Assembly: GCA_035221665.1 (NCBI GenBank)
Contig: JAVHYY010000408.1
Span: 124,001 to 188,000, forward strand
Source of the DNA: Okamejei kenojei
Lineage: Eukaryota
Direction: 5' to 3'
Length of the DNA stretch: 64,000 nucleotides
Shown here: one piece after another, positions 9,814 through 63,484 of the stretch
Numbering within the stretch: position 1 is the first letter of the stretch
How the letters are laid out: every line of letters starts with the position of its first letter
Program-made: the position numbers and the translations under genes
The notes under the pieces: generated by a model
What the model was told of the DNA's origin: nothing
The model's input: only the letters and a program-made list of their open reading frames with translations
Database searches by the model: none

Positions 9814-9883
9814 GTGGAACTCCAATGATTGCGAGAAAGGGATAGCAAATGGCAAACACAAGCCCACTTACTGGTCCGTGCAT
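9814..9883 (-). CDS. GPCR gene G0 coding exon 1 (MHGPVSGLVFAICYPFLAIIGVP +1 nt); exon 2 predicted left of the window
   Basis: ATG at 9883, 70 nt, donor GTAAGT at 9813-9808. Same context as the other exon 1 copies. Confidence 0.82.
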
Positions 9884-10559
9884 TGTCTTCAATGGGCGAC
9901 CTGTATTCACCAAACATCCAGCATGTCGCACTTATATTTTCCGCGAGAATCCCAGGAGAGTCAATTTATCGTCATGTTATCCACAGTTCGAACGATCACG
10001 AGTGCTGCCATTCAGATGCATGTCATTGTTGTTTTTAACACTCCACAATAACGGAATACATGCCCCAAATGGACACAATTAACATAAATTGGGTAATCAA
10101 TACATTATGCACGTTTCCATGACTAAATAATATCTAGATGTTTCTTCCCTGCTCTGTTTATTGTCCGATGTTACTTTACCTCTAACGTTCGAGCATATCA
10201 CATCCAATGAGTTCCAACGAAATGAAATTAAAAAAACTCGGCCAGCAAGAAAGCGTCACTTCAGCAACATTCAATTTTGCTAAACGCGCACTGTGATATT
10301 AATGCGACCAAGCAAGATTAATACAGCCATGTTCTTTCTGGTGTGTAAATGTAGTTGGAACACTCAAAGTATAATGCTCAGCTTCTGCCTCATCAATGCT
10401 GATTTTATTATGGACCTTTCCCTTTGATGGTCGCTCTGCTTGTAATACCATCTATGTTTATCTTTACAAAATACGGTTACAGAAACGCCTTAATAAATCT
10501 GATTCAACAATTGCCTCGCTTGATTATAGCGTAGCCGACCTTTCTTTAAAGTTTAATTT

Positions 10560-11190
10560 CCATCAATCCCACCTGCCAGTGTTTGGCCCATATATTTCTA
10601 AAACGTTCCTATACATGCACCTCTCCAGATGAGTTTTAATTATTTTACAATTCCTACCTCAACCACCTCATCTGGCAGCTCGTCTCGTACACCCACAATA
10701 CATTATGTATAATGATTGTGTCACTGATAATTTGTTCCTTTTTACATTAAGCTTATCTTTTCTGGTTCTTGTTTCCCCCTGTCTAATTCTCTCACAATAG
10801 TAGCTACCTTTGCAAGAGCACCTCTCTTTTTCATGCGCAGCAAGGAAGCATGCCATAGGCTACCCAAATATCTCCCTATATTTCAGTCCCTCGGGTCTGG
10901 GCAACATTTAATTATGCGATGCTCACCAACAGTAGGGTGGACATACCGGAACCAAATACTACAAATGCGCCCTTACCAACGCCTTGTACAATGGTGACAT
11001 GACATACTCATTGCCCTGACTGATGAAGGAGAATGTACCGAAATCCTTCCATACTAAACTGTCTACCGGTGGTAACAAATTCAGGGAAATATGCGCCCAC
11101 GCTGCCAGATACCTCAGCGCTACAACATTCCGTAGAGTTCCGCCAATTTCACTGCGACGTATGATGATGTAATGCTCCATCTACATTCAA
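10560..11190 (-). mobile_element. Old CR1 3' fragment (paralogs ~24200-25490, ~38425-38975, ~51000-51660)
   Basis: LYKALVRAHL-type motif and CR1 3'-end sequence. Boundaries approximate. Confidence 0.7.
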
Positions 11191-11714
11191 TCATCCATGT
11201 GGGCCTTCCTGAAGAGTAATACTAAATTTCTATTATAATTTTGCATCCATTCTCACTGTTTAAAACCATTGACCTTTTCACCTATTCCCTTTCTCATTAA
11301 CAATTGATGCAATTACGCCACTTGGTCGATTAAACGAAATGTATTGCTGGAACAAGGTCAGAGCTTCGCCTGGAAATATCCACACTTGTCTGGCTTTGTA
11401 TGTTAAAGACACATTAGTTACGCATATCTTTACTGAAGGCAAATCAGAACACCATGCGCAGAGAACTGAGCACGACACGCAGTCCACGGAGCACGGAAAT
11501 GAGGCGCAGAGTAGAATGCGGGCAGCACGGACCATGGAACGCAGAAAGCGGATTAAAAAGCACTGGGCGTAAACCACATAGCATGGCCTGTGTCGAGCTA
11601 CCAGTCAAATGGAGAAGTGATGTCCCTCTGTTTAATAAAAGCATGGCGAATAAAACAAACATGGACGTCGGTGAGGATGATGCCCGTGGTGGTGGAGAAG
11701 ATATCGGATATTAT

Positions 11715-15820: not shown

Positions 15821-17294
15821 ATTTAAAGGTCATTTTAGATTTAGGATGGGCTTCCACGACAACATATGGCCAGCTGGAGTAAGATGAATGTTGTAAACCA
15901 GACAAAGGGTAATACCACTGAGTAAGCGTTCTTTATTACACCCATTATCAGACACATGGGAAGATGTTTATTCAAATCGTCAAGACGGAACTGAAAGTTG
16001 TACGTTACTCTGAGTGATCACAAATAAATGTTGACACCTGAATAACTATTTACAAATAAAAAAAACCGCATGTAATGATTGTGTCGCGAGAATATAAAAA
16101 GGATGTGGGCGCTTTGAATCATTAAACACTGTGTAGATTGGTTACATTACTTACTAACCAATGTATTGCTTTATCAATGTAAGCTCCGACTACTACTACA
16201 CGATTTATATTATCGCAATGAGACGTGCTGTTAGTTGATGTAATTGATATGCTGCTGTGTTTTGTATATGTTACTCAATAAATACTGTTGTACTAGATAC
16301 GTGAGTATGTGTGATTTGCTCAACACACTGTGAGTTCTACCAGAGTGTTTCGCACTATATACTGGCATCGCCTCTAGAAAATCGGCGTGTGCGAAACTCA
16401 TCGTTGTTCTGCGCCATTGAACAGCGAGCATGCCTTTCGGCTGGAAGAGAGGAATCCTAGGTGAGCTTCAGTGCGGACATTTTATAAAGCCCACCTAGGG
16501 AGAGCTTGAATACCCACATCCCCGTTCAACTGTGTCTCACTCTATAACGTCTACAGTGTCTCTATAGTTGTCTTCCCTTTTCTTGCGCAACTGCACGGTT
16601 CATTCAAACCTCAAGGGGGAGAAGACCATTTTAGCATCATTTTTTAGGTGTTGCTAGACTGGTTTCCTGGAACGAAAATGAAAACGTAACCCCTATAACT
16701 GATGGACATTCAGAATTTATCGCTACACGGCTCTTCTCTAACAGTTTAATTTTGCGCTTTGTTATCATTGCAATTACACCTAAAAATAATTCTTGAGCTG
16801 AGGCACCTGAGCGGCCAAGTGTATTATTAACGGACTCTCGGCAAACCCCTCTCGCTTTTTTCACGTTTTATTCAGCATACATCATTCAATACTCCAAAGA
16901 TAACACATAATGCCCTCTAGTTGTTTCCCCGTTACTTGCAATGTGGCGCACACTGATCTATTGGCAAGACTCATGCATTTTTGCAAAAACAGATATCCCA
17001 TCCTTCACTCTATTACGACAGACGGCAATGTCTGACGAGAAATATTGTGTGTTCCATGGTGACAAAAGCCGCTAGGTCTATGACTGACCCGCCGTGGCAC
17101 TCCTGCATTTCGTGACTATCTCTCTTTTTATAACTACAAATTTTGCATTAATGCTGGAGAAACTGGATGGAGCGGAGCTTTGGATGTGGTGCCCGCGATT
17201 CTAGCTGGGATGCTGGCAATTGGAAGATCATATTTTTACAACAAATAATGGAAAGTTGAAACCGGGACAAAAATATACATTCTGTCAGAATAAT

Positions 17295-18211
17295 TTATTT
17301 TAATCCACTGAGGCAGTTTTCAAACACCACCAGAGGATATTTCACCGCCTTCTTCAACTCCTGTCTGAATTTAGCCTGGGTCACTGCGTAAATAAAGGAA
17401 TTCGTGCAGAAGCTGAGGGTCGAGAGCATGTTACTGCTTTCTTGGAGAATGTAACGCGGGTTTCTGAAACTTAAACCGGAGAAATAAGGACCGCCTTTAA
17501 TCCGAATGAACAAAAAATTAACGACATGCGTAAACCACAAACACAGAAAACTGGCGGAGATGCTGAAAAGCAAAATTATGGATTTTCTCCGGTTCTCCAT
17601 TTCTGCATCTTTCCCCTCCTCGCGCTCCTTGTTACCGCGAAGTGCATTGCGGATTCTGTTGGACACCAATACGTGTCTGATAGTCAGAACATTGAACAAA
17701 AATATCAGAAGGAAAGGAAGAGAAGGTGTTAAAATGTGATCCAGCCAATCGTAGGCTTTCCAGGCAGGTTCAGTGTAGAAGCTTAACTTATAGTCACAAA
17801 ACCAGGGCACTCCGTCCACTGTATACAATGGTTGGTATACAAAGTAGTAAGGGGCGTTCTTTACACCGCTCAGGGCACAGACAACAGCTATTACCACAGC
17901 CGCGGTTTTCTTCGTGCAGTAACTATCTTTTAGCTGCCGGCAGCAAATGGCTGCGAATCGATCGAAGGTGAATGCAACAGTCAGCCACACCGATGAATCC
18001 GTGCTTGTATAAATCATCACCGTGCTCAAACTACAGGCGGGAGTGGTGGAGAAGAAACTGTTAATAAAGTAGATCCCAGTTATTCGATTCAGTATCACGG
18101 CGGAGACGATTACCAGCAGATCCGTCACCGCCATGGCCACGAGGTAATACGTAACACATTTGGAGAGTCCACACCTCGCTCGCGATAGGATCACAACGGC
18201 CGCTATGCTCG
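17295..18211 (-). CDS. GPR139/GPR142-like class A GPCR, gene G1, coding exon 2 (end of TM1 to stop)
   Basis: Open frame with TM segments and family motifs ILSRARCGLSKCVTYYLVAMAVTDLL, SVWLTVAFTFDRFAAIC, LPFLLI, RRKSIILLFSISASF..W, NML..CTNSFIY. Acceptor ttgtttctcttaacAG at 18213-18212, phase 1. With exon 1 gives 328 aa. Confidence 0.93.
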
Positions 18212-18784
18212 CTGTTAAGAGAAACAACGGTAAGGGTAAAGGAGTAACGATAATGGAATGTTTGATGTAGTTTAAAAGAGAGTGGTTGACCACAAATCGC
18301 TCTAAAACAGCTTGGAGGAGAGTGTTTAACGACCGATTCCAGGGATTGCGGGCCCGAGAGGCAGGCATTGCCTCACTGGAGTTTAGGAGAATGAGAAATG
18401 ATCTTACAAAGAACACCAGCATTCAAACAATACTGTAAAGGGGAGGGGGGTATGTTGTTGATGACATCCAGAATCAACATTCAAGTCATTTGATACGTCA
18501 TCACATTTGAACCGTGAGCTGGCGAAATGTCATCCCACAAATGGCGATGAACGTCTGCAGCAGAAAGCAGTGGAACCCATGTCATTGCACATTTTCCGGA
18601 GGAGGTGGTTGTTTTTTATCAATAGTGAAATAATACCAAAATGCATGATTCCCCCATGCAACCGGTGAACCATAGAGCAGCTGACGGGCCGCTTAATTTA
18701 TCTTTGCTCCTATTTGATTCGTTTCTATGTCGCTGGGAGATTGCAGAAGACGTGGTTTGGTTCCATTGTTGAATTCAGCACTCC

Positions 18785-21753: not shown

Positions 21754-22034
21754 AATTGCAATCTGTTTTGTTTCATTTTAAAGCAGGAAAGGGAGTAGAA
21801 AATTCAGCATCTCACAGAAATGTCACCTCATCTTCTTATTCGACAACGTATCTCCCAAACACGGGCACCGCCGCTGTTGCAATAAACGGACGGTGCGGTG
21901 TTTATGTCCGAACTTGTTGCAATGGCAAAATAGAATAGAATGCAATAAATTCAGAAAGGGGTTGTTCCAGGTCATATTTACATATGAAGTGAAGTGCAGT
22001 GTAATCGAACAAAACATTAAATTAACTAAATTAC

Positions 22035-23447: not shown

Positions 23448-23517
23448 GTGGAACTCCAATGATTGCGAGAAAGGGGTAATAAATGGCAAACACAAGCCCA
23501 CTTGCCGGTCCGTGCAT
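23448..23517 (-). CDS. GPCR gene G1 coding exon 1 (MHGPASGLVFAIYYPFLAIIGVP +1 nt)
   Basis: ATG at 23517, 70 nt, donor GTAAGT at 23447-23442. Phase matches the exon 2 acceptor. Supplies the missing TM1 half (YY..L..IG.P, as in GPR139 exon 1). Intron 18212-23447. Confidence 0.88.
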
Positions 23518-23564: not shown

Positions 23565-23592
23565 CTTATATTTTTTGCGAGAATCCCAGGAG
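23565..23592 (-). promoter_or_regulatory. Candidate core promoter of G1: TATAAG plus an O/E(EBF)-like TCCCAGGAG; equivalents at 9931-9958 and 50373-50400
   Basis: TATAAG about 50 nt upstream of the ATG in all five copies. TCCCAGGAG lies about 14 nt further upstream. Motif match only. Confidence 0.35.
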
Positions 23593-24223
23593 AGTCAATG
23601 TATCTTAATGTTATCCACAGTTCGAACGATCACGAGTGCTGCCATTCAGATTCATGGCATTGTTGTTTTTAACACTCCACTGTAACGGAATACATGCCCG
23701 AAATTGAAACAAATAACACACATTGGATAATCAACAGATTATGAACGTTTCCCCGACAAAATAATATCTAGATGTTTGTTCCCAGCTCTGTTTATTGTCC
23801 GATGTTACTTTACCTCCAACGTTCGAGCACATCACATCCAATGAGTTCCAACGAAATCAAAGTTAAAATAAAACTCGGCCACCAAGAAAGCGTCACATCA
23901 GGAACATTCAATTTTCCTAAACGCACACTGTGATATTAATGCGACCAAGCGAGATTAATCCAGCCAATGTTCTTTCTGGTGAGTAAATATAGTTGGAGCA
24001 TTCAAAGTATACCGCTCAGCTTCTGCCTCATCATTGCTGATTTTATTATGGACCTCTCCCTTTGACGGTCGCTCTGCTTGTGATAACATCTTTGTTAATC
24101 TTTACCAAATACCGTTTCAGATTCGCCTTAATAAATCGGATTCAACAAGTGACTTGCTTGATTAAGGCGTAGCCGACCTTTCTTTAAAGTTGAATGTCCA
24201 TCAATCCCACCAGCCAGTGTTTG

Positions 24224-32487: not shown

Positions 32488-33379
32488 TTATTTTAATCGA
32501 CTGAGGTAGTTTTTAAACACCACCAGAGGATATTTCACCGCCTCTTTCAACTCTTGTCTGAATTAAGCCTGGGTCACTGCGTAAATAAAGGAATTCGTGC
32601 AGAAGCTGAGGGTCGAGAGCATTTTAGCGCTTTCTTGGAGAATGCAACGAGGATTTCTGAAACCGGAAAAATAAGAACCGCCTTTAATCCGAACGAACAC
32701 AAAATTAACGACATACGTAACCCAGAAGACCAGAAAACTGGCGGAGATGCTTAAAAGTAAAATGACAGATTTTCTCCTGTTCTCATTTTCTGCATCTTTC
32801 CCATCCTCAAGTTCCTTGTTACTACGAAGTGCATTGCGGATTTTGTTGGCCACAAATATGTGTCTGATAGTCAGAACATCGAACAAACATATCAGAAGGA
32901 AAGGAACAGAAGGTATTAAAAGGCGATCCAGCCAATCGTAGTCTTTCCAGACAGGTTCAGTGTAGAAGCTTAACTTAAAGTCACAAAACCGGGGCACTCC
33001 GTCCACTGTATACAATGGTTGGCATGTAAAGTAGTAAGGGGCGTTCTTTACACCTCTCAGGACACAGGCAGCAGCTATTCCACAGCCGCGGTTTTCTTCG
33101 AGCAGTAACTATCTTTTAGCTGCCGGCAGCAAATGGCTGCGAATCGATCGAAGGTGAATGCAACCGTCAGCCATACCGACGAATCCCTGCTTGTATAAAT
33201 CATCGCCGTGCTGAATCTACACCCAAGAGTGATGGAGAAGAAACTGTTAATAAAGTAGATCCCGGTGATTCGATTCAGTATCACGGCGGAGACAATTACC
33301 AGCAGATCAGTCACCGCCATGGCCACTAGATAATACGTAACACATTTGGAGAGTCCACACCTCGCTCACGATAGGATCA
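32488..33379 (-). pseudogene. GPR139-like pseudogene G2, exon 2
   Basis: 18-nt deletion at the exon start, CGA>TGA at 33368-33366, 1-nt frameshift near 33078 (AAVE*), 6-nt ECL3 deletion, and a private TAA at 32565-32563. Confidence 0.92.
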
Positions 33380-36065: not shown

Positions 36066-36133
36066 GGGGAACTCCAATGATTGCGATAAAGGGGTAGTAA
36101 ATGGCAAACACAAGCCCACTTGCTGGTCCGTGC
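36066..36133 (-). pseudogene. Pseudogene G2 exon 1, start codon deleted
   Basis: HGPASGLVFAIYYPFIAIIGVP with intact GTAAGT donor. A ~19-nt deletion (gtgc|ctatttt) removes the ATG. Confidence 0.85.
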
Positions 36134-36319
36134 CTATTTTGCCCAAACATCCAGCATGGCGCACTTATATTTTCCGCGAGAATCCCAGGTGAGTCAATTT
36201 ATCTTCATGTTGTGCACAGTTCGAACGACTACGAATAACGCCATTCAGATTCATGGCATTGTTGTTTTTCAACACTGACTGTAACGGAATACATGTCCCA
36301 AATGGGAACAAATAACATA

Positions 36320-37936
36320 CAGTGGCTTGCAAAAGATTTTATACCCCTTGAACCTTTCCACATTTTGTCACATTACAACCACAAACGTAAATTTATTTTA
36401 TTGGGATTTTATGTGATAGACCAACACAACGTGGCGCATAATTGTGAAGTGGAAGGAAAATGATACGTGGTTTTCAAATTGTTTTACAAATTAAAAACTG
36501 AAAAGTGTGGCGTGCAAAAGTAGTCAGACTCCTTTATTCTGATTCCCCTAAATAAACTTCAGTGCAGCCAATTGCCTTCAGAAGTCACCCAATTAGTAAA
36601 TTGAGTCCACTTGTGTATAATCTAATCTCAGTATAAATACAGCCGTTCTGTGAAGGCCTCAGAGGTTTGTTACAGAACATAAGTGAAAAAAACAGCATAA
36701 TGAAGCCTAAGGAACACACCGGACAGGTCAGGGATACATTTGTAGAGATGTTTAAAGCAGGGTTAGGTTATAAAAAAATATCCCAAGCTTTGAACATCTC
36801 ACGGAGCACTGTTCAATCCATCATGCTAAAATGGAAAGAGTATGGCACAACTGCAAACCTACCAAGGCATGGCCCTCCACCTAAACTGACAGGCCGGGCA
36901 AGGAGAGCATTGATCAGAGAAGCAGCCAAGAGGCCCATGGTAACTCTGGAGAAGCTGCAGAGATCCACAGCTCAGGTGGGAGAATCTGTCCACAGAACAA
37001 CTATTAGTCGTGCCCTCCACAAATCGGGCCTTTATGGAAGAATGGCAAGAAGAAAGCCATTGTTGAAACAAAGCCAGAAGAAGTCCCGTTTGCAGTTTGC
37101 CACAAGCCATGTGGGGGACACAGCAAACATGTGGAGAAAGGTGCTCTGGTCTGATGAGACCAAAATTGATGTTTCTGGTCTAAATGCAAAACGCTATGTG
37201 TGGTGGAAAACTAACACTGCACATCACCCTGAACACACCATCCCCATTGTGAAACATGGTGGTGGGAGCATCATGCTGTGGGGATGCCTTTCTTTAGCAG
37301 GGACAGGGAAGCTGGTCAGAGTTGATTGGAAGATGTATGGAGCCAAATACGGGGCAATCTTGGAAGAAAACCTGTTAGAGTCTGCAAAAGACTTGAGACT
37401 GGGGCGGAGGTTCACCTTCCAGCAGGACAACGACTCTAAACATACAGCCAGAGCTACAATGGAATGGTTTAGATCAAAGCATATTCATGCGTTAGAAGTG
37501 CCCAGTCAAAGTCCAGACCTAAATCCAATTGAGAATCTCTGGCAAGACTTGAAAATTGCTTTTCACAGACGCTCTCCATCCAATCTGACTGAGCTTGAGC
37601 TATTTTGCAAAGAAGAATGGGCAAACATTTCAGTCTCTAGATGTGGAAAGCTGGTAGAGACATACCCCAAAAGACTTGCAGCTGTATTGCAGCGAAAGGT
37701 GGTTCTACAAAGTATTGACTCAGGGGGGCTGAATACTTTTGCACGCCACACTTTTCAGTTTTTTATTTGTAATAAAATTTGGAAACCATGTATCATTTTC
37801 CTTCCACTTCACAATTATGCACCACTTTGTGTCGGTCTATCACATAAAATCCCGATAAAATACATTTACGTTTGTGGTTGTAATGTGACAATATGTGGAA
37901 AGGTTCAAGGGGTATGAATACTTCTGCAAGCCACTG
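36320..37936 (+). mobile_element. Tc1/mariner DNA transposon, full length (1617 bp), IR/DR-type long TIRs
   Basis: TA flanks at 36318-19 and 37937-38. TIRs of ~210 bp have outer and inner ..tgcaaaagtattca.. repeats. Empty site at ~63678. Confidence 0.96.
36700..37917 (+). CDS. Tc1 DD34E transposase, open except for a 1-nt C-terminal frameshift causing read-through
   Basis: MKPKEHT.. paired-like [26 protein letters not shown] (34 residues between D and E). gctgtattgcag versus gctgtaattgcag in the other copy. Confidence 0.9.
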   Translation: MKPKEHTGQVRDTFVEMFKAGLGYKKISQALNISRSTVQSIMLKWKEYGTTANLPRHGPPPKLTGRARRALIREAAKRPMVTLEKLQRSTAQVGESVHRTTISRALHKSGLYGRMARRKPLLKQSQKKSRLQFATSHVGDTANMWRKVLWSDETKIDVSGLNAKRYVWWKTNTAHHPEHTIPIVKHGGGSIMLWGCLSLAGTGKLVRVDWKMYGAKYGAILEENLLESAKDLRLGRRFTFQQDNDSKHTARATMEWFRSKHIHALEVPSQSPDLNPIENLWQDLKIAFHRRSPSNLTELELFCKEEWANISVSRCGKLVETYPKRLAAVLQRKVVLQSIDSGGLNTFARHTFQFFICNKIWKPCIIFLPLHNYAPLCVGLSHKIPIKYIYVCGCNVTICGKVQGV

Positions 37937-39375
37937 TACTTTGGATAATCAATACATTCTGAACGTTTCCCTGACAAAATAACGTTTCTAGATGTTTCTT
38001 CCCTGCTCTCTTTATCTTCCGATGTTACCTTCCCTCCAACGTTCGAGCATATCACATCCAAACTCGGCCAGCAAGAAAGCGTCACTTCAGTAACATTCAA
38101 TTTCCCTAAACGCACACGGTAACATTAATGTGACCAAGCGAGATTGATCCAGCTGTGTTCATTCTGGTGAGTAAATATAGTTGGAGCATTCAAAGTTTAA
38201 CGCCCAGCTTCTGGCTCATCATTGCTGATTTTATTATGGACGTTTCCCTTTGATGGTCGCTATGCTTGTTATACCATCTTTGTTTATCTTTACCAAATAG
38301 CGTTTCAGAATCGCCTTAATAAATCGGATTCAACGGGTGACTTACTTGATTAAAGCGTAGACGACCTTCCTTTAAAGTATAATGTTCCCCCTCCATCAAC
38401 CCCACCTGCTAAAGTTGAATGTCCATCAATCCCACCAGCCAGTGTTTGGCCCATGTATTTCTCAAAATGTCCTATTCATGCACCTCTCCAGAAGTGTTTT
38501 AATTATTTTTACAGTTCCTGCCTCTACCACCTCATCTGTGGCAGCTCGGCTAAGTGGCACTCAACAATACGTTTTTGTGTTGAAAGGAATGTGTCCCTGA
38601 TAAGTGCGTTCCTTTGTACATTATCTTAGGCCTTTGGTTCTTGTTTCCGCTCCCCAATCTGGATACAAGCTCTGTGCAATATCTCCCTGTGCGAAGTCTC
38701 TCACATTAGTTCATTACATTATCAAGAGCACCTCTCTTTTTCCATGCGCTCCAAGGAAGAAAAAGTCTTAGTCTAACCCAAGGTATCTCCCTATATTGCA
38801 GTCCCCTCCGGTCAGGCAACATGTAATTATTCAATGCTCACCAACATAATTGCTGCAGTGAGGTGGACATACCGGAACCAAATACTCCAAATGCTGCCTT
38901 ACCAACGCCCTGTACAAAGGTGACATGACATACGTATTGCCCTGACTGATGAAGGCCATTGTACCGAAAGCCTTCATTGCTCACCATGGAACGCATAGAT
39001 TGGCTCACAGAGCACTGGGCGTAAACCACATAGCATGGCCTTTGTCGAGCTACCAGTCAAATGGAGAAGTGATGTCCTTCCGTTTAATAAAAGCATGGCG
39101 AATAGAACAAAAATGCACGTCGGTGAGGATGACGCCCGTGGTGGTGGAGAAGTTATTGGATAAGATTCTTCGGCATATAAGGTTTAAGATGAAGGGCAGA
39201 AGGTGGAATAGGAACTGGAAGGGTAACTCTCTCACACAAAGGCTGGTGGTTGTCTGCAACAAGCTACCAGAGGAGGCGGTTGAGGGTGGGATAAGCCAAA
39301 CGTTTAAGAAACAGTTAAACAGGTACACGGATATAACAGGTTTGTTGGGAAATGGGCCAAACGCAGACAAGTGGG

Positions 39376-40657: not shown

Positions 40658-41576
40658 TTATTTTAATCGACTGAGGCAGTTTTCAAACACCACCAGCGGA
40701 TATTTCACCGCCTTCTTCAACTCCTGTCTGAATTTAGCCTGGGGCTCACTGCGTAAATAAAGGAATTCGTGCAGAAGCTGAGGTTCGAGAGCATGTTACC
40801 GCTTTCTTGGAGAATGTAACGTGGATTTCTGAAACTTGAACCGGAGAAATAGGAACCGCCTTTAATCCGAATGAACATAAAATTAACGACATACGTAACC
40901 CACAAGAACAGAAAACTTGCGGAGATGCTGAAAAGCAAAATTATGGATTTTCTCCGGTTCTCAATTTCTGCATCTTTCCCATCCTCGCGCTCCTTGTTAC
41001 CACGAAGTGCATTGCGGATTTTGTTGGACACAAATACGTGTCTGATAGTCAGAACATTGAATAAAAATATCAGAAGGAAAGGAAGAGAAGGTGTTAAAAT
41101 GTAATCCAGCCAATCGTAGGCTTTCCAGACAGGTTCAGTGAAGAAGCTTAACTTATAGTCACAAAACCAGGCCACTCCGTCCACTGTATACAATGGTTGG
41201 TATACAAAGTAGTAAGGGGCGTTCTTTACACCGCTCAGGGCACAGACAGAAGCTATTACCACAGCCGCGGTTTTCTTTGTGCAGTAACTATCTTTTAGCT
41301 GCCGACAGCAAATGGCTGCGAATCGATCGAAGGTGAATGCAACCGTCAGCCACACCGATGAGTCCCTGCTTGTATAAATCATCACCGTGCTGAAACTACA
41401 GGCGGCGGTGGTGGAGAAGAAACTGTTAATAAAGTAGATTCCGGTGATTCGATTCAGTATCACGGCGGAGACGATTACCAGCAGATCCGTCACCGCCATG
41501 GCCACTAGGTAATAAGTAACACATTTGGAGAGTCCACACCTCCCTCGCGATAGGATCACAACGGCCGCTATGTTCG
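40658..41576 (-). CDS. GPR139-like GPCR, gene G3, coding exon 2; 2-nt insertion near 40744 shifts the frame after TM7 (new stop at 40717)
   Basis: About 92% aa identity to G1 by manual comparison. Acceptor ttaacAG at 41578-41577. gcctggGGCtcac versus gcctgggtcac in G1. Ancestral TAA at 40660-40658. Confidence 0.88.
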
Positions 41577-50255: not shown

Positions 50256-50325
50256 GTGGAACTCCAATGATTGCGATAAAGGTGTAGAACATGGCAACCA
50301 CAAGCCCACTTACTGGTGCGTGCAT
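50256..50325 (-). CDS. GPCR gene G3 coding exon 1 (MHAPVSGLVVAMFYTFIAIIGVP +1 nt)
   Basis: ATG at 50325, 70 nt, donor GTAAGT at 50255-50250. Intron 41577-50255 contains CR1 and L1. Confidence 0.85.
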
Positions 50326-53300
50326 TGTCTTCAATGGGCGACCTGTATTGCCCAAACATCCAGCATGTCGCACTTATATTTTCCGCGAGTATCCCAGGAG
50401 AGTCAATTTATCTTCATGTTATCCACAGTTCGAACGATCGCGAGTGCTACCATTCAGATGCATGGCTTTGTTGTTTTTAACACTCCACTGTAACGGATAC
50501 ATGCCCCAAATGGAAACAAATAACATAAATTGGGTAATCAACACATTATGAACGTTTCCCCGACAAAATATTATCTAGAAGTTTCTTCCCTGCTCTGTTT
50601 ATTGTCCGATGTTACTTTACCCCCAACCTTCGAGCATATCACATCCAATGAGTTCCAACGAAATGAAGTTAAAAAAACTCGGCCAGCAAGAAAGGGTCAC
50701 CAGCAACATTCAATTTTCCTAAACACACACTGTGATATTAATGCGACCAAGCGAGATTAATCAATCCGTGTTATTTTTGGTGAGTAAATATAGTTGGGGC
50801 ATTCAAATTATAACGCTCAGCTTCTGCCTCATCATTGCTGATTTTATTATGGGCCTTTCCCTTTGATGCTCGCTATACTTGTGATACCATCTTTGTTTAT
50901 CTTTACCAAATACCGTTTCAGAATCGCCTTAATAAATCGGATTCAACAAGTGACTCGCTTGATTATAGCGTATCCGACCTTTCTATAAAGTTTAATGTCC
51001 ATCAATCCCACATGCCAGTGTTTGTTCCATCTATTTCTAAAACCTTCCTATCCATGCACCTCTACAGATGAGTTTTAATTATTTTACAGTTCCTACCTCA
51101 ACCACCTCATCTGGCAGCTCGTCTCGTACACCCACAATACATTGTGTATAATGATTGTGCCCCTGATAATTCGTTCCGTTTTACTTTAAGCTTCTCTTTT
51201 CTGGTTCTTGTTTCCCCCCAATCTGGATACAAGACACTGCGCATTCACCCTGTCTAATTTTCCCACAATAGTAGCTACCTTTGCAAGAGCACCTCTCTTT
51301 TTCATGCGCTCCACGGAAGAATGTGCTAGGCTACCCAAATATCTCCCTATATTTCAGTCCCACGGGTGTGAGCAACATTTAATTATTCAATGCTCACCAA
51401 CAGTACGGTGGACATACCGGAGCCAAATACTCCAAATGCGGCCTTATCAAAGCCTTGTACAATCGTGACATGACATACTAATTGCCCTGACTGATGAAGG
51501 CGAATGTACCGAAAGCCTTCCTTACTAAACTGTCTACTGGTGGTAACAATTTCAGGGAAATATACACATACGCTGCCAGATACCTCAGCGCTACAACATT
51601 GCGTAGAGTTCCGCCAATGTCACTGCGACGTATGATGATGTAATGCTCCATCTACATTCAATCATCCATGTGGGCCTTCCTGAAGAGTAATACTAAATTT
51701 CTATTTAAATTTTGCATCCATTGTCACTGTTTAAAACCATTGGCCTTTTCACTTATTCCCTTTCTCATTAACAATTGATGCAATTAGGCCACTTGGTCGA
51801 TTAAACGAAATGTGTTGTTGGAACAAGGTAAGAGCTTCGGCTGGAACTGTCCACACTTGTCTGGCTTTGAATGCTAAAGAAACATTAGTCACGCACATCT
51901 TTACTGAAGGCAATGTAGAACACCGTGCACAGAGAACTGAGCACAACACGCAGTCCATGGAGCACGGAAATGAGGCGCAGAGTAGAACGCGGGCAGCACG
52001 GACCATGGAACGCAGAGAACGGATCACAAAGCACTGGGCGTAAACCACATAGCATGGCCTTTGTCGAGCTACCAGTAAAATGGAGAAGTAATGTCCCTCT
52101 GTTTAATAAAAGCATGGCAAATGGAACAAAAATGCACGTCGGTGAGGATGATGCCCGTGGTGGTGGAGAAGTTATCGGATAAGATTCTTCAGGATATAAG
52201 GTTTAGGGCGAAGGGCAAAAGGTGGAATAGGACCTTGAGGGGTAACTCTTTCACACAAAGGCTGGTGAGTGTATGGAACAAGCTACCAGAGGAGGTGGTT
52301 GAGGGTGGGACAAGCCAAACGTTTAAGCCAAAAGTTAAACAGGTGCACGGATATAACAGGTTTGTTGGGAAATGGACCAAACGCGGGAAGTGGGACTCGT
52401 GTAGCTGGGATGTGTTAGCCTGCGTAGGCAGGTTAGGCCGAAGGGCCTGTTTCCACGCTGTGACTCTATGACTCTATGGATACAATCTACTCGCATAGAA
52501 AAAAGGGTGGATTTAATTACGTTGTCACGTGAGTGACTACGTGAAGTCCCCGTCCAGCACGCATGCGCGACATTAGCGTTCATGCAGTGCACCCGCGACG
52601 AACGGGAGTTCAAGGCGCTCCCGCTACAAATTGAAATGTCGGGCCGACAGGTACGTTTTACCGTGGCCGTGTGTATTTTATCTGTGGTCTGCTTTATGTT
52701 CCAGGAGAATGGGCAAGACCAGAGGGATGAAATCTGCAGCTCGCCCCCGTTCGGCTTCCTTTGGGGAACGGGCGTTGGAGGGGGGGCAAGAGGCGGCAGG
52801 AATAACTACCGAGCCGAGCCCAGCACCGCTAGTGCAGCCTGAGCAGCGGGCTGGAGGTACCTGCAGCCAGAACCGGGCGGTAGTATCCGACGATTCGGAT
52901 GAAGATGCCACACCGCTCGAGAGCGGCACAGGCAGCCGCCTAAGCCGAATGGAACGGCTTATGGAGCAATTGCTCCAGCGAGATCTGCTGAGAGAGCAGC
53001 AGCAGACTCGCCAAGGGAGCCCAGGCACTCCCGCAGTGCCCTTTACGGCACTGGCCATTGCTTCACCTTCTTTTGAAGGCAGCATTGGCGACCAGGTCTG
53101 GGCTGGTCAAGAAGAGGGGTTGTTGGCTGAAGATGTCCGGAGTACGCAGAGTGTACAGGATGAGGAAGCGTTGCTGGGTGTGGTCAACCGCTACGTGGTC
53201 ATTCCACGAGCGGGTCGGCCTTTAGAGCCGAAACCTGCGGCCAGCATTGACCACCTGTCCTCAAAACCCCTACAAGAATAGGTGGTCAATGAGGCTATTG

Positions 53301-53844
53301 AACAATATACAGCCCCAGAAAATTGTACATTGTTGAATGTACCAGCTGTAAACAGCCAAATTTGGGGACATTTGGGGCAGAACATCAGGAACCTGGAGTT
53401 GAAGCTCCAGAAAATCCTTAAACTCCTGACTGCAGGAATAACATCATATTCTCGTTCCATTGATGGTGTGGACATCTCCACAAATCAGCAAGACACATTA
53501 ACTCTGCTGTGCACCACTCAATATGAGATAAACAATTTACGGAAGGAAATCATCAAACCTGCCCTCAACCCTAAATTTGCGGGACTTTGCAAAACAACGG
53601 GTTCAGAACCTCCAATTCTGCTCTTTTGAAAGGACCTTCCGAAAAAGGTGAAAGACCTAGAGGAAGAATCCAAGACCTTTGGTCTCGTGAGGGCAGGTTT
53701 GGGACCGAGCAGACCTAACAAACCCAGACGGCAGTACCCCACGGCGTCCACCAGTCGTTGACCACCATATGCGACTGGTGAAAGCTCGGGGTCCGCAACC
53801 ATTCCCCATAAGCCATTTTTAGGCCAGGGCCCAGAGCGGACCCC

Positions 53845-55851: not shown

Positions 55852-55883
55852 TCACCCGTGCATGACAGAGGTCAATCTCTGGC

Positions 55884-56850
55884 TTGCAGATTCTAAAAAG
55901 ACCTCTACTTGTCCTAGGACTGTCTGAGGACGCCATCAACATCATGACCGCATCCCACTGGGAGTCCACCAGGAGAGAATACCTGACCAACATTAGAAAA
56001 TGGAACGGTATTGCTCCAAAACAGGAACTACCTACACTACAGCTACAGCCACCAGTGTTGTGGAGTTTCTGGTTGGATTACATCGGGAAGGACTCAGCTA
56101 CAGCGCCATAAATACAGCCAGGAGTGCGTTGTCAGCCTATTTGGTTCCAGCAGCAGGACCACTGGCTTTGGGGTCCCATCCACTAGTGGTCAAAATCATG
56201 AGGGCATTTTTAACACTAATTCCCCCAGACCAAGGTACACTCAGATCTGGGATGTCAGCATTGTGCAGACATACCTTAGGGGATGGCCACCACCCAGATC
56301 ACTCACGCTGGAACAACTTACTCAGAAATCAGTCATGCTCATGGCACTAGTGTCAGCTCAAAGGGTACAGTCCCTCCACCTTCTGAGGCTGGACAGCATG
56401 ACAGAGTCATTGGACTGTATCACATTCCATAGTCAGGGACTGGTCAAACCAGGTACTAGACCAGGTACCACGCCTCCAGTCATGGAGTTCCGGGCATATT
56501 CATCTGACCTACGGCTGTGTGCCAAGAACCATCTCGCCAATTACATAGACACAACATACAACTTAAGAGGGAGAGAAAAAGCCTTATGGATAACCCACAA
56601 GAAGCCTCATGGTCAGGTGACGAGCCAAACCATTTCAAGGTTGGTTAAAGCAGGTGCTTAAGTCCGCGGGAGTCAATACTAATGTTTGCAAATCTCACTC
56701 ACCAGGGCTGCATCTACGTCGACGGCTAGGCGAATGGACGTGCCTATGGACCATATTCTGGCCAGAGCAGGATGGTCCTCGGAAAGAACTTTCCAAAGGT
56801 TTTTATAATAAGCCGCTGGCGGAACTGCTACATTTGCAGACATAATTTTA
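55884..56850 (+). pseudogene. DIRS tyrosine recombinase, frameshifted
   Basis: LSYSAINTARSALS, HPLV, PRY..WDV, LMALVSAQRVQSL, SHS and AGWSS motifs across frames. Confidence 0.88.
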
Positions 56851-57037
56851 GTGTCTGCAGATAATATTTAATTTAAGCCCGGGGGAGCTCTCTGTTTTTT
56901 TGTTGTCATTAATAAATCTTTTTTGTTCACAAACGGGTTATTGTTGATTGTGATAACATACTTCCTCCCTCTAAGGTCTTCAGACAGTGAGTGAAGCATG
57001 AGCTGGTACATGGTTCGGAATCACAGAGCTTTGAAGT

Positions 57038-57149
57038 CTTCACGTAGTCACTCACGAGACTCCGAAATAAAATAGTGAGATTAAATGAGAACTTACCAGT
57101 TCGAAGTTTGATCTGTATTTTATGAGGAGTTACGATGAGGGATTATGTG
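57038..57149. repeat. DIRS internal complementary region (ICR)
   Basis: 57038-57060 is the reverse complement of the left end (52524-52546). 57069-57149 is the reverse complement of the right extension (57299-57379). Right ITR 57268-57305 mirrors ~52537-52574. Confidence 0.92.
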
Positions 57150-59685
57150 CCCTCCGCTCCCACCCTCTATTATACAGATCAACTGGTAATTAAGTTCTTA
57201 TTTTTTCTTTACTATATTTATTTCAATTGTTGTGTTTTTTCTGTGATGCCACACCGCTGCTTTGAAGAATGTCGCGCATGCGTGCTGGACGGGGTCTTCA
57301 CGTAATCCCTTATCGTAATTCCTCATAAAATACAGATCAAACTTCGAACTGGTAAGTTCTCATTTAATCTCACTATTTTATTCGTGTATATCTTACAAAT
57401 GGTTCATTGTTTGAGAAAATGCGATGATGCATGGTAGACTAAAAAAACTGCAAATGCAGGGTAACTTGCGTTGAATGCAAATTATTGGGGTAACTCAGCG
57501 GCTCATGTGGAGGGCATAGACACACGACATTGTCCCAATCGGCGCCGTTTCCCGTCTGTTAGCATGGTTCGCTCTTTCTATTTTTTGGGATCACGAATCG
57601 ACGAGTTTGAAGGGGGTGTTGGGAGGGGGGAGGGGGTCAGGGATGGGGAGTGTGCGAGGAAGGATGTGTGTGTGGGGGACGGGGTGTGTTTGGCGGAGGG
57701 GGGTGTGTGTGGAGGGGTTTGTGGGGTTGTTTGGGGTAGGGGAGGGTGTGTATGTCGGAGGGGGGGGGAGTGTAGATCAGTGTAGATTAGTGTAGTTACT
57801 AGTGTAGCGTTCTTTATAACACCCATTTGTGGTTGGTATCAGACACGGGGTGTGGGGGATGGGAAGATGTTTTTTTTATACAAGGGCGGCTCGGACGGGC
57901 GGCTCAAGACGGGCGGCTTAACAGAAAGTTGTACGTTACTCTGAGTGATCACAAATAAATGTTGACACCTGAGATAACTATTTAGATTTATAAAATACAA
58001 ATATAAAAAAAACCGCATGTAATGATTTGTGTCGCGAGAACATAAAACGATGTGGGCGCTTTGAAAGATCATTAAACAGACAAAGGGCAATGTGTAGATT
58101 GGTTAAAGTCATTACTTACACAAATAAAACCGATGTAATGCGCGAGAACATAAAACTTATCAATATAAGCTCCGACTACTATTACACCATTTATATTATC
58201 GCAATCCGACATGTGCTGTTAGTTTCTGTAATGGATATGCTGCTGTGTGTTGTATATGTTACTCAATAAATACTGTTGTATCAGATCCGTGAGTATGTGT
58301 GACTTGCTCAACACACTGTTAGTTCTCCCAGAGTGCTCCTTACTATATACTAGCGTCGCCTCTAGAAATTCGGCGTGTGCGAAACTCATTGTTGTTCTCC
58401 GCCAGTGAACAGCGAGCATGCGCTTCATCTGGAAGAAAGGAATCCATGGTGAGTTTCAGTGCGGACATTTTAGAAAGCACAGCCACAGCATGAATAGTTG
58501 ACGCGATGGTCAGACGCCGGGCAGCAGCCTGAGAAGCGATATAGGGTACTGGCTTGAAGATGGGAATCCTCTGTGAGTTTCAATGCGGGTACTTTAAAAA
58601 GCCCACCAAGAATCGGCCTTGAACGAAGGTTGGCGAGGAGCAACAGTCGGAGCAGTGAGAGAGTGTGTTGGATGGAGCATCTAAATTAGTTGCTTGTACA
58701 GCAAATACAATTAACGGTAGTTGTAGTGGAGCGGCCTACAGGGAGGCCGCTCCACTGCAGCCTGTCTATTTATCTCTCTCTAGGATCCGCTAGGATCCGC
58801 TGGGCTGAAGGGCCAGATACTGTGTTTCGTTCCTCTATGACTCCATCAGGCCAATGTTAAATTGGCCGAACTCTGCCCACATACCCGTTCAACTGTTTCT
58901 CCCTCTATAACGTCTACAGTGTCTCTACAGTTGCTTCACTTTTCTTGCGCAACTGCACGGTTCATTCAAACCTCGAGAGGGAGAAGACCATTTTGTAATC
59001 ACTTTTTAGGTTTTGCTAGACTGGTTTCCCGGAACGAAAATGAAAAACGTAACATCTATAACTGATCGACATTCAGAATTTATCGCTGCAAGGATGCTGA
59101 GAGAAGAAAATATTTCCGGCTATTCTTTAACAGTCTAGTTTTGCGCTTTGTTATTATTGCAATTAAACCTAAAAATAATCCTTGAGCTCAGGTCACCTGA
59201 TCGGCCAAATGTTTTATTAGCGCACTCTCACAAACCCATGTCGATTTTGTTCACGTTTTTTCCAGCATACATCATTCAATACTCCAAAGATAACACATAA
59301 TGCCCTATAGTTCTTTCCCCGTTACTTGCAAAGTGGCGCACACTGATCTATTGGCAGGACCCATGCAGTTTTGCTGAAATAAATATCCCACCTTTCACTC
59401 TATTACGAACATACGGCAATGTCTGACGAGGAATGTTGAGTGTTCCATGGAGACTAAAGCCGCCAGGTCTATGACTGCCCCGTCGTGGTAGTCCTGTATT
59501 TCGTGTCAATCTCTCTCTTTATAACTACAAATGATGCATTAATGCTGGAGAAACTGGATGGAGCGGAGCTTTGGATGTGGTGCCCGCGATTCTAGCTAGA
59601 ATGTTGGCAATTGGGAGATTACCTTTCTACAACAAATAACGGAAAGTTGAAACCGTGGCATAAATATACATTCTGTCGGAATAAT

Positions 59686-60574
59686 TTATTTTAATCGACT
59701 GAGGCCGTTTTCAAACACCACCAGATGATATATCACCGCCTCCAACTCTAGTCTGAATTTAGCCTGGGTCACTGCGTAAATAAAGGAATTCGTGCAGAAG
59801 CTGAGGGTCCAGGGCATTTTAGCGCTTTCTTTGAGAATGTAACGTGGATTTCTGAAACCGGAAAAGTAAGAACCGCCTTTAATCCGAACGAACACAAAAT
59901 TAACGACATACGTAACCCAGAAGACCAGAAAACTGGCGGAGATGCTTAAAAGTAAAATGACAGATTTTCTCCTGTTCTCATTTTCTGCATCTTTCCCATC
60001 CTCAAGTTCCTTGTTACTACGAAGTGCATTGCGGATTTTGTTGGCCACAAATATGTGTCTGATAGTCAGAACATTGAACAAACATATCAGAAGGAAAGGA
60101 ACAGAAGGTATTAAAAGGCGATCCAGCCAATCGTAGTCTTTCCAGACAGGTTCAGTGTAGAAGCTTAAACTTAAAGTCACAAATCAGGGCACTCCGTCCA
60201 CTGTATACAATGGATGGCATGTAAAGTAGTAAGGGGCGTTCTTTACACCTCTCAGGACACAGGCAGCAGCTTTTCCTCAGCCGCGGTTTTCTTCGAGCAG
60301 TAACTATCTTTTAGCTGCCGGCAGCAAATGGCTGCGAATCGATCGAAGGTGAATGCAACCGTCAGCCATACCGACGAATCCCTGCTTGTATAAATCATCG
60401 CCGTGCTGAATCTACACCCAAGAGTGGTGGAGAAGAAACTGTTAATAAAGTAGATCCCGGTGATTCGATTCAGTATCACGGCGGAGACAATTACCAGCAG
60501 ATCAGTCACCGCCACGGCCACTAGATAATACGTAACACATTTGGAGAGTCCACACCTCGCTCACGATAGGATCA
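59686..60574 (-). pseudogene. GPR139-like pseudogene G4, exon 2
   Basis: Same 18-nt deletion, TGA at 60563-60561, TM4 frameshift and ECL3 deletion as G2, plus additional indels. Confidence 0.92.
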
Positions 60575-63419
60575 CTGTTAAGAGATACAACGATAAGGGT
60601 AGGGTAACGATAAAGGAATATTTGATGTAGTATAACAGTTAGTAGTTGACCAAAAACTGTTCTAAAACGACGTGGAGGAGTAAAACCCATGTCTGCAGCA
60701 GAAAGCAGTGCAACCCAAGTCATGCACATATTCCGGAGGAGGTGGATGGTTTTTCTCAATGGTGAAGTAATAACGAAATGCATGGTCACCCATGCTCCCG
60801 ATGAAGCAGAGAGTAGATGATGGGCCGCTTAATTCACCCATGTTCCTATTTGATGTGTTTCTATGTCGCTGGGAGAATGCATAAGACGTGGTTTGGTTCC
60901 ATTGTTGAAATCAGAACTCCATGTGAATTTACCAACCCGACAATAGACAACAGACAAATAGGCAATAGAGAATGGATGCAAGAGTAGACCAATCGGCCCT
61001 TCGAGGAAGCACCGACATGCACAGTGATCATGTGAACATCCACAATCAGTACCCCATTCCCGCCTTCTCCCCATATCCCCTACTTATCCGTTATCTTTAA
61101 GATCTCTATCTAACCTTTTCCTTGAAAGCATCCAGTGAATTGGCATCCATTGCCTTCTCAGGCTGAGATTTCCACAGATTCACAACCCTCTGTGTGAAAA
61201 GGTTTTTCCGCATCTTCGTTCACAATGGCTTACCCATTAATCTTAAACTGTGGCCCCTGGTTTTGGACTCCCGCGTCATCGGGAACTTGTTTCGTGCTTC
61301 TAGTGTGTCCAAACATTGAAAATTATATGTTTCAATAAGATACCCTCTTATCCTTTCTAAATTGCAGAGCATTGAAGCCCAGCCGCTACATTCTATCAAC
61401 AGATAACAGTCCCGCCTTCCCGGTAATTCACCGTGTGAACCTACGCTGCACTACCTCAAAGCAAGAATGTCTTTTGCTCAAATTTTGAAACCAAAACTGC
61501 ATACAAAACTGCAGGTGTGGGTCTCAGGGGGCCATGCACAACTGCAAAGTACCTCTTTGCTCCTATAGTCAACTCCTCTTTTTATTTATTTATTTTTTTG
61601 TTTTAAATATTTTATTTATTAGAGGGAAATACATCAATGTACTTCACATATACCTTGTTACAATTCATTGTACCCCATAAATTTTATGGCTTTTAAAGAA
61701 AAATAATGAAAGAAAGAGAGTGAAATAGGTGAAAAGAATGGTGATAGCGAAAGAGCGTGCCAAAAGGGAGAAGAAACCCTTCGTCAAAGAATTAGAGAAA
61801 GGGGGTTAAGTGATAGACCCTTAAAAAAAAGGAAAAGGAAAACAAAAATAAAAAAAATCCCGTTACCCTGTTTTATATATCACGCAAAAGGAATCCACCA
61901 ACTCCATAGTTTTTCATCCCCCCCTAACCAAGGCCCGAGGTACTCCTGCACCTATCTTTGTAGCAATTCTATAAATGCAGACCACGTCTGAAAGTGGCGT
62001 TCTGATTTTCCTTCCAGGCGGAGTCTCATATCTACCAGATGTAGTGTTTTCAAACATAGTTGAAATCCACATATTTAATGTTGGTATAGGGCATTTTTCC
62101 AGAATTTTAAGATTAGATTTTTCCTATTATTAAGCCGTAATCAAATACATTCTTTTGATACGCATTTAATTCTGGACTAACCTTCTGTCATTCCGAAAAT
62201 AATCCATTCTGGCTTTGGTGTCATTTTTATTTTAAACACACTTTTGTGAAAATTTCAAAGATTTCAATCCAAAACCTTTGAATTTTTGTACAAAAGATGA
62301 ATGAGTGCGCTATTGTAGCTTCTTGACTGTGGCATTTATCACAAATCGGCGAAAGCGTTAGGGAAACATTTATTTAATTTTAGTTTTTGAGTAGTATACT
62401 CTATGTATAATCTTATTAAAGTGTGTCTTATCAAAAAGAGGTAATTGCGTGCACTTTTGATAAGTATTCATTCCCACCTTTCATAGAAATGTATATGCCT
62501 TAGTTCGTTTTCCCACTTAACTCCTCTAATGTATCTAAGGGTGTATTACAAAGTCCTCTATTTTATGAATACCAACATGCCATTGCTTTCTCACTGCCCT
62601 GCTGTACCTGCATGCTCCTTACGTTTACAGAGACTGATAAACCAGACCCCCGTAGATCTCGTTGTACCACGCCATCGCAACCTGACTACTTGTTTAAGAT
62701 AATAATCTGTTCAGATATTAATCTTGTTCACCCAAAGGTGATAACCTCACATTTATCCACATTAAACTGCATCTCCATGCATCTGTAACTCACCAACCTG
62801 TCCCAAGTTCACGCTCTGCAATCCTCATAGCCATCAATTCACACAGTGTGCTCTTCAAATTTGCTAATGCACTTTAATCCCTTCATCTAAATAATTGACG
62901 TATATTGTTAAAATATCTGCGGTCCCAGCACCGAGTCTTGCGTTACCCCACTAATCACTGCCTGCCATACTAAAAAGAGACACGTTAAACCTACTACTGC
63001 TTGTTACCTCTCTGCCAACCCAATTTCCTAGCCATGTCAGTACCCTACCCCCATTCCATGTGCTCTAATTTTGCCCACTAACTCCTATGTGGGACCTTGG
63101 CAAATGTTTTCTAAAAGTCCAGGTGCACTACATCCACAGGCTCTCCGTTGTCCATGTTCATAGTTACATCTTCAAAACATTCCGGAAGATTAATCAAGCA
63201 TGATTTCCCTTCGTACTTCCATGTTGACTCGGACCGATCGTCCTGTTACTGCTATCCAAATAGCCGCTATTCATATTTTCATAACGGATTCCATCATCGT
63301 CCACAACCACGGATCTACAGGCTCAAATGACCAAAATCCCAAACAGTTAAAACTTAGGAGTCGCAGTTATGTATACACACAAACGATTTTGTGTCCCGTT
63401 CAATAGAGGTGAAACTTAC

Positions 63420-63484
63420 GGAACTCCAATGATTGCGATAAAGGGTAGTAAATGGCAAACACAAGACCCACTGCTGGTCCGTGC
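63420..63484 (-). pseudogene. Pseudogene G4 exon 1 (degenerate, ATG deleted)
   Basis: ..PFIAIIGVP followed by the donor at 63419-63414. Same ATG-removing deletion as G2, plus indels. Confidence 0.8.

Follow-up and report, generated by a model that had tools for sequence, protein, structure and literature searches.

An elasmobranch-expanded family of GPR139-like receptors in the skate Okamejei kenojei as a candidate odorant receptor repertoire

Introduction

[quoted passage not shown] The Trp/Phe site of GPR139 consists of F109, H187, W241, N271 and R244, that is, F3.33, H5.42 (5x43), W6.48, N7.39 (7x38) and R6.51 (PMC5430874). In genomic organization, the nearest counterparts are the odorant receptor (OR) and TAAR repertoires, which consist of clustered genes numbering from hundreds up to a thousand, roughly one in three of them broken, and are characterized by a short N-terminus, a variable pocket and promoters with homeodomain (HD), O/E and TATA words; the clade III TAARs have Asp5.42. 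Published counts put the olfactory receptors of cartilaginous fish, the catshark among them, at only about 10-50 (PMC10116579). Here we analyze a 64,000-nucleotide stretch of the genome of the skate Okamejei kenojei (hereafter the window), bases 124001-188000 of the 188,961-bp contig JAVHYY010000408.1 (hereafter C495; assembly GCA_035221665.1, 2.76 Gb), which carries a tandem array of genes from a very large elasmobranch receptor family with traits like those of the OR and TAAR repertoires. Positions given without a contig name are those of the window.

Size and distribution of the family

The window contains four exon-2 copies detected by tBLASTn, all on the minus strand, and five exon-1 copies on the same strand, with splice donors at 9814, 23448, 36066, 50256 and 63420. 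The original prediction of five co-oriented gene copies, made from the window alone, is borne out by these five first exons, except that the copy taken to be partial belongs to a complete gene that the edge of the window divides. C495 is filled by the array from end to end, with 13 exon-1 and 11 exon-2 copies; six of the latter are intact and 88-95% identical to one another, one is frameshifted and four are dead.

The array is part of a lineage-expanded birth-and-death family that reaches far beyond the local cluster. A protein search of the genome yielded 2,734 candidates, and all 130 that were scored are at least 51% identical. An exact motif from transmembrane helix 3 (TM3) has 308 matches in the genome, and its looser form (up to three mismatches) has 1,445, compared to 3 for a control; these matches form megabase clusters across many large contigs, so that the lineage expansion that had been anticipated is not only a local duplication. 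Calibration on 989 kb (contigs C15, C30, C5, C44 and C495) gave 62 matches for 62 loci, with the motif present in 60 of the loci. Exon 2 is open in 42 of the 62, about a third of the loci being broken, and in 13 of 22 loci chosen by the motif alone. We estimate that about 850-980 of some 1,400 loci retain an open exon 2, a figure derived from a sample biased to known clusters and possibly inflated by duplicated haplotypes. With some 1,400 loci under the label 'probable GPR139', the family would be among the largest vertebrate receptor repertoires; for comparison, the class C cysteine-rich domain, which includes that of the V2Rs, has at least 23 matches in the same genome.

The gene structure is uniform. 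Exon 1 comprises 23 codons in all 42 models of the first set and 20-25 codons in most of the 30 held-out models described below, and the introns span 104-12,121 bp, with a median of 1.8 kb. Two very short introns, of 135 and 104 bp, were observed at C15:55584539 and C15:55612248. The subfamilies are 50-65% identical, are located on many chromosomes and are common to several shark and ray genera. Among public protein clusters (RefSeq/UniRef), 1,188 match at E <= 0.001; the best 120 of these show 53-88% identity, each species-named one comes from an elasmobranch, and nearly all are called 'probable' or 'putative' GPR139. No holocephalan member is found among the best 120 of the 1,188 matches, although no search was aimed at chimaeras. 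The ESM Atlas gave matches only to clusters of the family itself and to FMRFamide-receptor-like clusters.

The shark and ray models annotated as 'probable G-protein coupled receptor 139' are thus the family itself, and because the same automatic name also covers the true GPR139 and a third GPR139-like paralogue (see below), the family has remained hidden. We found no description of it in the open-access literature, to which the search was confined; it is not mentioned in the accessible text of the GPR139 review PMC12208981 or of PMC12294341, family terms had no match in the text of the zebra shark genome paper, and neither 'GPR139' nor 'receptor 139' occurs in the three little skate supplementary files searched. 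The genes are already catalogued under a misleading name; what is new here is their placement beside a third paralogue, the finding that the GPR139 pocket is lost, the reversal of the variability pattern and the held-out promoter test.

Phylogenetic position

Relatives were collected by searching 50% representatives with the stingray GPR139 (10 of the 150 matches are named), and an IQ-TREE phylogeny was built from 52 of 100 rows, after removal of long-branch outgroups and near-duplicates. The family forms a clade with support of 100/100, separate from the equally supported GPR139+GPR142 clade (100/100), and groups with the coelacanth sequences P0302 and P0352 (96/92). The next clade outward contains lamprey, anchovy and reedfish sequences (98/95), followed by amphioxus genes (96/91). 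In approximately unbiased (AU) tests on 30 rows, the grouping of the family with GPR139/GPR142 was rejected (p = 0.0136), as was that with GPR139 alone (p = 2.9e-05). The original prediction had assigned the genes to GPR139/GPR142 and had itself named a tree placing them outside that clade as the outcome that contradicts the assignment; the separate clade, the AU tests and the lost Trp/Phe pocket argue against this identity, and the true GPR139 resides elsewhere in the genome, on C22, where its open part is 91% identical to the stingray GPR139. At C22:1174282-1233290, this gene is represented by one exon 1 and two copies of exon 2 that are rich in frameshifts and separated by 31 kb; this split, close to the chromosome end, is probably an assembly error.

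The sister of the family is the third GPR139-like paralogue (coelacanth XP_005988539, catshark P0401), which has one match in the skate genome at E < 1e-40 (C24:32834638-32838013). Sharks, sturgeon, teleosts, amphibians, turtles and squamates each have roughly one copy of it per species, whereas neither mammals nor birds figure among the named entries in the best 120 of its 145 matches, many of which are unnamed. It shares with the family the two-exon structure, the tiny N-terminus (24 codons ahead of the intron) and the intron position and layout. The Cys3.25/Cys45.50 pair, found in all 53 family representatives (see below) and all 18 sequences of the third paralogue, is common to both, as are the missing Pro6.50 (Thr at 6.50) and the missing Pro7.50. 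In contrast to the family, the third paralogue is single-copy, has an invariant pocket with Arg6.51 and is only about 30% identical to family members. The support for the sister pair is only 81 on 30 rows, and the stem branch of the family is long (1.29), so that attraction artefacts may affect its placement. Collectively, the tree and the single-copy sister suggest that the family branched off from the third paralogue rather than from GPR139 and was amplified in elasmobranchs.

The features that had been taken to point to GPR139 are undiagnostic. The phase-1 intron in TM1, correctly recognized in the window, and the missing Pro7.50 are shared by the family with GPR139/GPR142 and with the third paralogue alike, and the absence of Pro7.50 from the whole chordate clade means that it is no specific pointer to GPR139. 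The lack of NPxxY and the CTNSFIY and NML (7.39-7.41) sequences are indeed present in the window genes, but Asn7.39 is found in only 21 of the 53 representatives and is no family trait. The best match of a family receptor among sequences of solved structures is the GPR139 structure 7VUG (E = 2.7e-11), yet GPR139 and GPR142 lack the cysteine pair between position 3.25 and extracellular loop 2 (ECL2) that is universal in the family. In the same broad receptor group, tandem expansion has been described for FMRFamide-receptor-like GPCRs of the snail Lymnaea (PMC11589774). This expansion is independent of that in elasmobranchs; invertebrate relatives fall outside the chordate clade, although the tree does not single out the Lymnaea genes.

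Two further observations concern the relatives. The third paralogue, a conserved vertebrate gene brought to light by this analysis, is misnamed in databases as GPR139/GPR142 or as a TMEM183A isoform; D3.29, Y3.33, Q5.42, R6.51 and D7.36 are invariant in its pocket, and it is devoid of Trp6.48. The lamprey, anchovy and reedfish sequences (P0293, P0340 and P0376) constitute a fourth vertebrate clade of GPR139-like genes, placed as sister to the family and the third paralogue together.

Binding pocket and selection

The family receptors are class A (rhodopsin-like) GPCRs, with a Pfam 7tm_1 score of 73.9 bits against a cut-off of 30.5. The AlphaFold model comprises seven helices and an ECL2 hairpin (predicted local distance difference test 87, predicted TM-score 0.83) and reaches TM-scores near 0.7 with many structures of class A, many peptide receptors being about equally close. 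GPR139 does not stand out in the fold search, ranking 14 among the 50 matches listed. There is no kinship to the ORs or TAARs, the Pfam 7tm_4 score of exon 2 being 26.8 against a cut-off of 27 and covering the first third only.

From 75 of our own sequences, 53 representatives at <85% identity were selected. Arg3.50, Cys3.25, Cys45.50 and Asn5.58 are kept in all 53, and Trp6.48 is present in 52. The remainder of the GPR139 Trp/Phe pocket is not conserved: Arg6.51 is found in none of the 75 sequences, Phe3.33 in 8 of the 53 representatives, His5.42 in 7 of 53 and Asn7.39, as mentioned above, in 21 of 53. Instead, the family has an acidic core formed by Asp3.37 (48/53), Asp/Glu5.39 (40/53) and Asp/Glu5.42 (40/53), while position 3.32 is variable, mostly Ile, and devoid of the Asp that is characteristic of aminergic receptors. 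Because Asp5.42 is a non-classical amine contact in teleost TAARs (PMC4695389), we infer that the ligands may be cationic.

Across 34 positions that we count as pocket for class A receptors in general, the mean entropy within the family is 2.03 bits, compared to 1.66 in the remaining outer part of the TM helices and 0.93 in the inner part (pocket above outer, p = 0.012). The relationship is reversed in the relatives: the pocket is less variable than the outer TM part in the third paralogue (p = 0.012) and in GPR139 (p = 0.032), and by mean also in GPR142. Together with the clustering and the broken copies, this variable pocket on a conserved scaffold supports the proposed resemblance to chemosensory repertoires. 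The ratio of nonsynonymous to synonymous substitution rates (dN/dS) in 23 independent pairs of close paralogues is 0.29 overall, 0.16 for inner TM, 0.38 for the pocket, 0.36 for other outer TM and 0.48 for the outer loops; among the six intact C495 genes, it is 0.33. These values show that the family evolves under purifying selection and that constraint is relaxed on the outer face.

Promoter organization

The upstream sequences of different subfamilies can barely be aligned (50-56% in unrelated pairs). Nevertheless, within 140 bp of the ATG they contain a homeodomain word, an EBF-like box that is nearly palindromic, and a TATA box. In the interval from -140 to -55, which was picked after inspection of the training set, 12 of the 16 training groups had the EBF-like box, 9.5 had CTAATK and 9.1 had TATAWA, compared to at most 6.8, 4.0 and 2.5, respectively, in ten upstream background intervals. 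A held-out test, fixed beforehand, was then applied to 30 promoters, 18 of them non-redundant, that were obtained from 40 new stretches (an intact exon 2 was missing from eight stretches and the start was broken in one, the exon 1 of three exon-2 copies was outside the stretch, and four doubtful ATGs were retained). Among all 30, EBF-like boxes with up to two mismatches were found in 19 and with up to one mismatch in 12, CTAATK in 9 and TATAWA in 14. The corresponding non-redundant counts are 9/18 (background 0.18), 4/18 (0.03), 7/18 (0.08) and 7/18 (0.12), with p-values of 0.001-0.004 against the highest background. De novo, CTAATTG, TATAAAT and TGTTTGT were the top words in 35 promoters (reduced from 68 by redundancy removal, with four doubtful ones dropped). 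Furthermore, the best EBF-like box ends 9-16 bp ahead of the TATA box in 23 of 32 TATA promoters, whereas shuffles gave a mean of 6.1 and a maximum of 13.

HD and O/E motifs mark mouse OR promoters (PMC12547500, PMC7804114, PMC5608512), and the predicted HD and EBF-like sites of the skate family suggest a promoter of the same kind. Two near-identical skate V2R promoters also contain an EBF-like box, CTAATT and TATA, although the number is anecdotal; a third V2R promoter has only EBF-like boxes, further upstream. In the third paralogue and GPR139, no motif matched at -140 to -55, a comparison that is again anecdotal in number and made with uncertain start sites. About half of the 35 promoters carry a forkhead-like word, TGTTTGTT or TGTTTAC, often followed by CA(G), at -120 to -190; this word is not present in the subfamily of the window.

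A candidate odorant receptor repertoire

We consider it on balance probable that the family is an odorant receptor repertoire of shark and ray olfactory sensory neurons. Under this scenario, a duplicate of the conserved single-copy GPR139-like paralogue would have diverged rapidly and gained a compact promoter with forkhead-like and homeodomain sites, an EBF-like box and TATA, and would then have multiplied by unequal crossing-over, dead genes being copied along. Lhx2/Emx2-type and EBF factors would drive sparse expression in olfactory neurons, and every receptor would recognize its own water-borne ligand by means of variable residues of the pocket placed around a conserved acidic core (Asp3.37, Asp/Glu5.39 and Asp/Glu5.42) that would favor amines or basic peptides. 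Differences from the ORs and TAARs are the coding intron, the promoter located directly ahead of the ATG and the absence of Asp3.32. In the catshark, olfactory neurons form an almost continuous layer, with 5.94 cells/mm expressing v2r1, the V2R co-receptor, 2.76 expressing taar1a and 0.45 expressing ora2 (PMC10116579). These densities suggest to us, although not to the authors of that study, that many catshark olfactory neurons carry no known receptor.

Several observations weigh against an olfactory role. The promoters are related by descent and, therefore, the motif counts show conservation rather than independent origins. The letters of the EBF consensus are presumed rather than taken from the cited texts, and EBF factors are active in many neurons. 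EBF1 is also a B-cell factor, judging from a reference title in PMC12547500. The Lhx2-Ebf composite pattern of the Greek Islands is not enriched (3.5 of 16 groups versus 0.8-4.6 in the background), although this pattern is an enhancer feature and OR promoters are also devoid of it (PMC11643329). In PMC10116579, all olfactory neurons of the catshark are described as microvillous cells of the TRPC2/Go type and ascribed mainly to V2Rs, and no GPCR figures among the top 50 brain- and nose-specific catshark genes in the accessible part of PMC11979771, where the V2Rs are missing as well. Four sequencing runs covering 17000-24200 behave as DNA, with no exon joint, and have no bearing on expression. 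Positive selection at the pocket was not found by pairwise counting (dN/dS 0.38, 95% confidence interval 0.29-0.49): the ratio is below 1 and no higher than in the outer TM part (0.36) and thus lends no support to it. Finally, that the ligands would be amines or basic peptides rather than aromatic amino acids is a deduction from residue chemistry.

The repertoire traits would all fit a chemosensory set outside the nose, for example, in solitary cells of skin, gill or mouth, in taste buds, or in the form of MRGPR-like somatosensory sensors of irritants or peptides. Homeodomain and EBF sites serve many sensory neurons, but the known taste and MRGPR sets are far below a thousand genes. Catshark V2R-like genes do occur in scattered epithelial cells of the gill and mouth (PMC11979771); conversely, the combination of HD, O/E and TATA is the layout described for OR promoters (PMC12547500), and one type of skate V2R promoter is similar, so that we regard a non-nasal set as unlikely, if the least so of the alternatives. 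A slightly lower probability is assigned to an immune, gut-endocrine or reproductive set that would sense microbial peptides, nutrients or gamete signals, comparable to the formyl-peptide receptors or to GPR142 in islets and gut. The fold is indeed nearest to peptide receptors generally, but the pocket dN/dS carries no arms-race signal and the top promoter word is the homeodomain site CTAATTG. Such sites are untypical of lymphocyte promoters. On the other side stand the role of EBF1 in B cells (the reference title cited above), the peptide receptors in the wider clade (PMC12208981) and the shift of several catshark V2Rs to testis and rectal gland (PMC11979771).

Derivation from a neuropeptide receptor might also have produced brain neuromodulator or cell-identity receptors, expressed sparsely in central neurons, given that GPR139 is brain-expressed and akin to FMRFamide/MIP receptors (PMC12208981) and that the roughly 450 FMRFamide-like receptors of Lymnaea were interpreted in the original study chiefly as neuropeptide receptors (PMC11589774). 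We consider this improbable: endogenous ligands should conserve the pocket, as they do in GPR139, GPR142 and the third paralogue, whereas the family shows the reverse, and the proportion of broken loci argues in the same direction. The least probable explanation, and by a family-wide standard a largely refuted one, is mostly neutral inflation by segmental duplication and duplicated assembly haplotypes, with few copies that matter. Locally, it has some appeal because dead copies have themselves been duplicated, the blocks along C495 are 97.5-98.9% identical, a copy on contig C494 is 97.3% identical to one on C495, and the subfamily of the window resides on small unplaced contigs. Against it stand the low dN/dS, both overall and among the intact C495 genes, the divergent subfamilies distributed over many chromosomes and shared by shark and ray genera, the coverage of a gene by independent DNA runs (see below), and promoter motifs kept amid otherwise unalignable sequence.

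If the family is olfactory, it would resolve the paradox of some 10-50 receptors in animals with large noses and would add an independently evolved odorant receptor family. A more far-reaching version of the odorant receptor reading, to which we give a little less than an even chance, is that sharks and rays evolved their own main odorant receptor family, with some thousand functional genes, from an orphan GPR139-like paralogue that stayed single in other vertebrates, reusing the HD/EBF promoter logic of mammalian ORs; this family would account for most neurons of the shark nose, and the textbook view of 10-50 receptors in cartilaginous fish would be an artefact of searching only the four known families. 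Should the family have no part in olfaction, a set of roughly a thousand GPCRs kept by purifying selection would still call for an explanation.

Organization of the array in the window

EBF-like boxes in this section are matches to the presumed consensus, and all genes are on the minus strand. The intact receptor of 328 amino acids reported in the original prediction is confirmed: exon 1 (23448..23517), with a phase-1 donor, is separated by a 5,236-bp GT..AG intron within TM1 from exon 2 (17295..18211), which runs from mid-TM1 to the stop codon, and the product matches Pfam 7tm_1 with E = 2.9e-20. Its predicted core promoter (23565..23593) consists of an EBF-like box at 23584-23593 and a TATA-like box at about 23565-23570. 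The MHGP start matches many shark and ray database models. Contigs from two other DNA runs span exon 2, the intron and exon 1 with few differences, so that the gene is no invention of the assembly. At position 1.50, in the first codons of exon 2 (18209-18211), Ser replaces the Asn of all 53 representatives both in this receptor and in one paralogue on C495, and in this subfamily the C|GT donor results in Pro-Pro in TM1. The gene cut by the window edge has an intact exon 1 of 23 codons and one base at 9814..9883; its open exon 2 (C495:121201-122109) lies about 2-3 kb to the left of the window, beyond an 11.7-kb intron, and its promoter has an EBF-like box at 9950..9959, 13 bp upstream of a TATA-like box.

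The near-intact copy had also been described correctly. Its exon 1 (50256-50325) and EBF-like box (50392-50401), together 50256..50401, are followed by an 8,679-bp intron and by exon 2 at 40661..41576, where a 2-bp insertion (40744-40745) just past the TM7 tyrosine leads to a product of 309 amino acids without helix 8. A 97.5%-identical block at C495:56-62 kb is free of this insertion, which is therefore either recent or an error.

The two pseudogenes are both dead, as proposed, but are copies of one dead ancestor. In the first, exon 2 (32488..33379) contains an 18-bp deletion, a TGA codon, a frameshift and a 6-bp deletion in common with other dead copies, and the exon-1 region (36066..36192) has lost the start codon but kept the EBF-like box at 36183-36192. 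The second has the same lesions in exon 2 (59686..60574) and an indel-rich exon-1 region (63420..63544), likewise without start codon, with an EBF-like box at 63535-63544. All four dead C495 copies, including these two, share the 18-bp deletion, located after the acceptor, the TGA codon and the 6-bp deletion, and three of the four share the 1-bp frameshift; the start codon is gone from both window pseudogenes through one identical 19-bp deletion. It follows from the common lesions that a dead gene was duplicated and that the deaths were not independent. Some lesions in the last ~1 kb of the window may be sequencing errors because this stretch is indel-rich and close to the contig end.

Several mobile elements are inserted in the array. 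A Tc1/mariner element on the plus strand (36318..37938), with inverted repeats of about 210 bp, a TA target site and a long open transposase frame, lies inside the upstream region of the pseudogene with exon 1 at 36066 and is 91% identical to a second, oppositely oriented element at 7655-9260. Remnants of a long interspersed element (endonuclease and reverse transcriptase) at 44129-48340 and 1-2450 are located in the introns of two copies and were inherited via duplication. The retrotransposon at 52520-57375 has a Pfam RVT_1 domain; downstream frames, with no Pfam match, resemble what we take to be RNase H and a tyrosine recombinase, as in DIRS-type elements. A 26-bp satellite ahead of the promoters is not found in the window, and 3 of 72 family promoters have a tandem array of 24-28-bp units within 1.5 kb upstream. 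Arrays of 25-29-bp units at up to 1.5 kb upstream are present at loci L129, L132 and L135, and only in the subfamily with a 25-codon exon 1.

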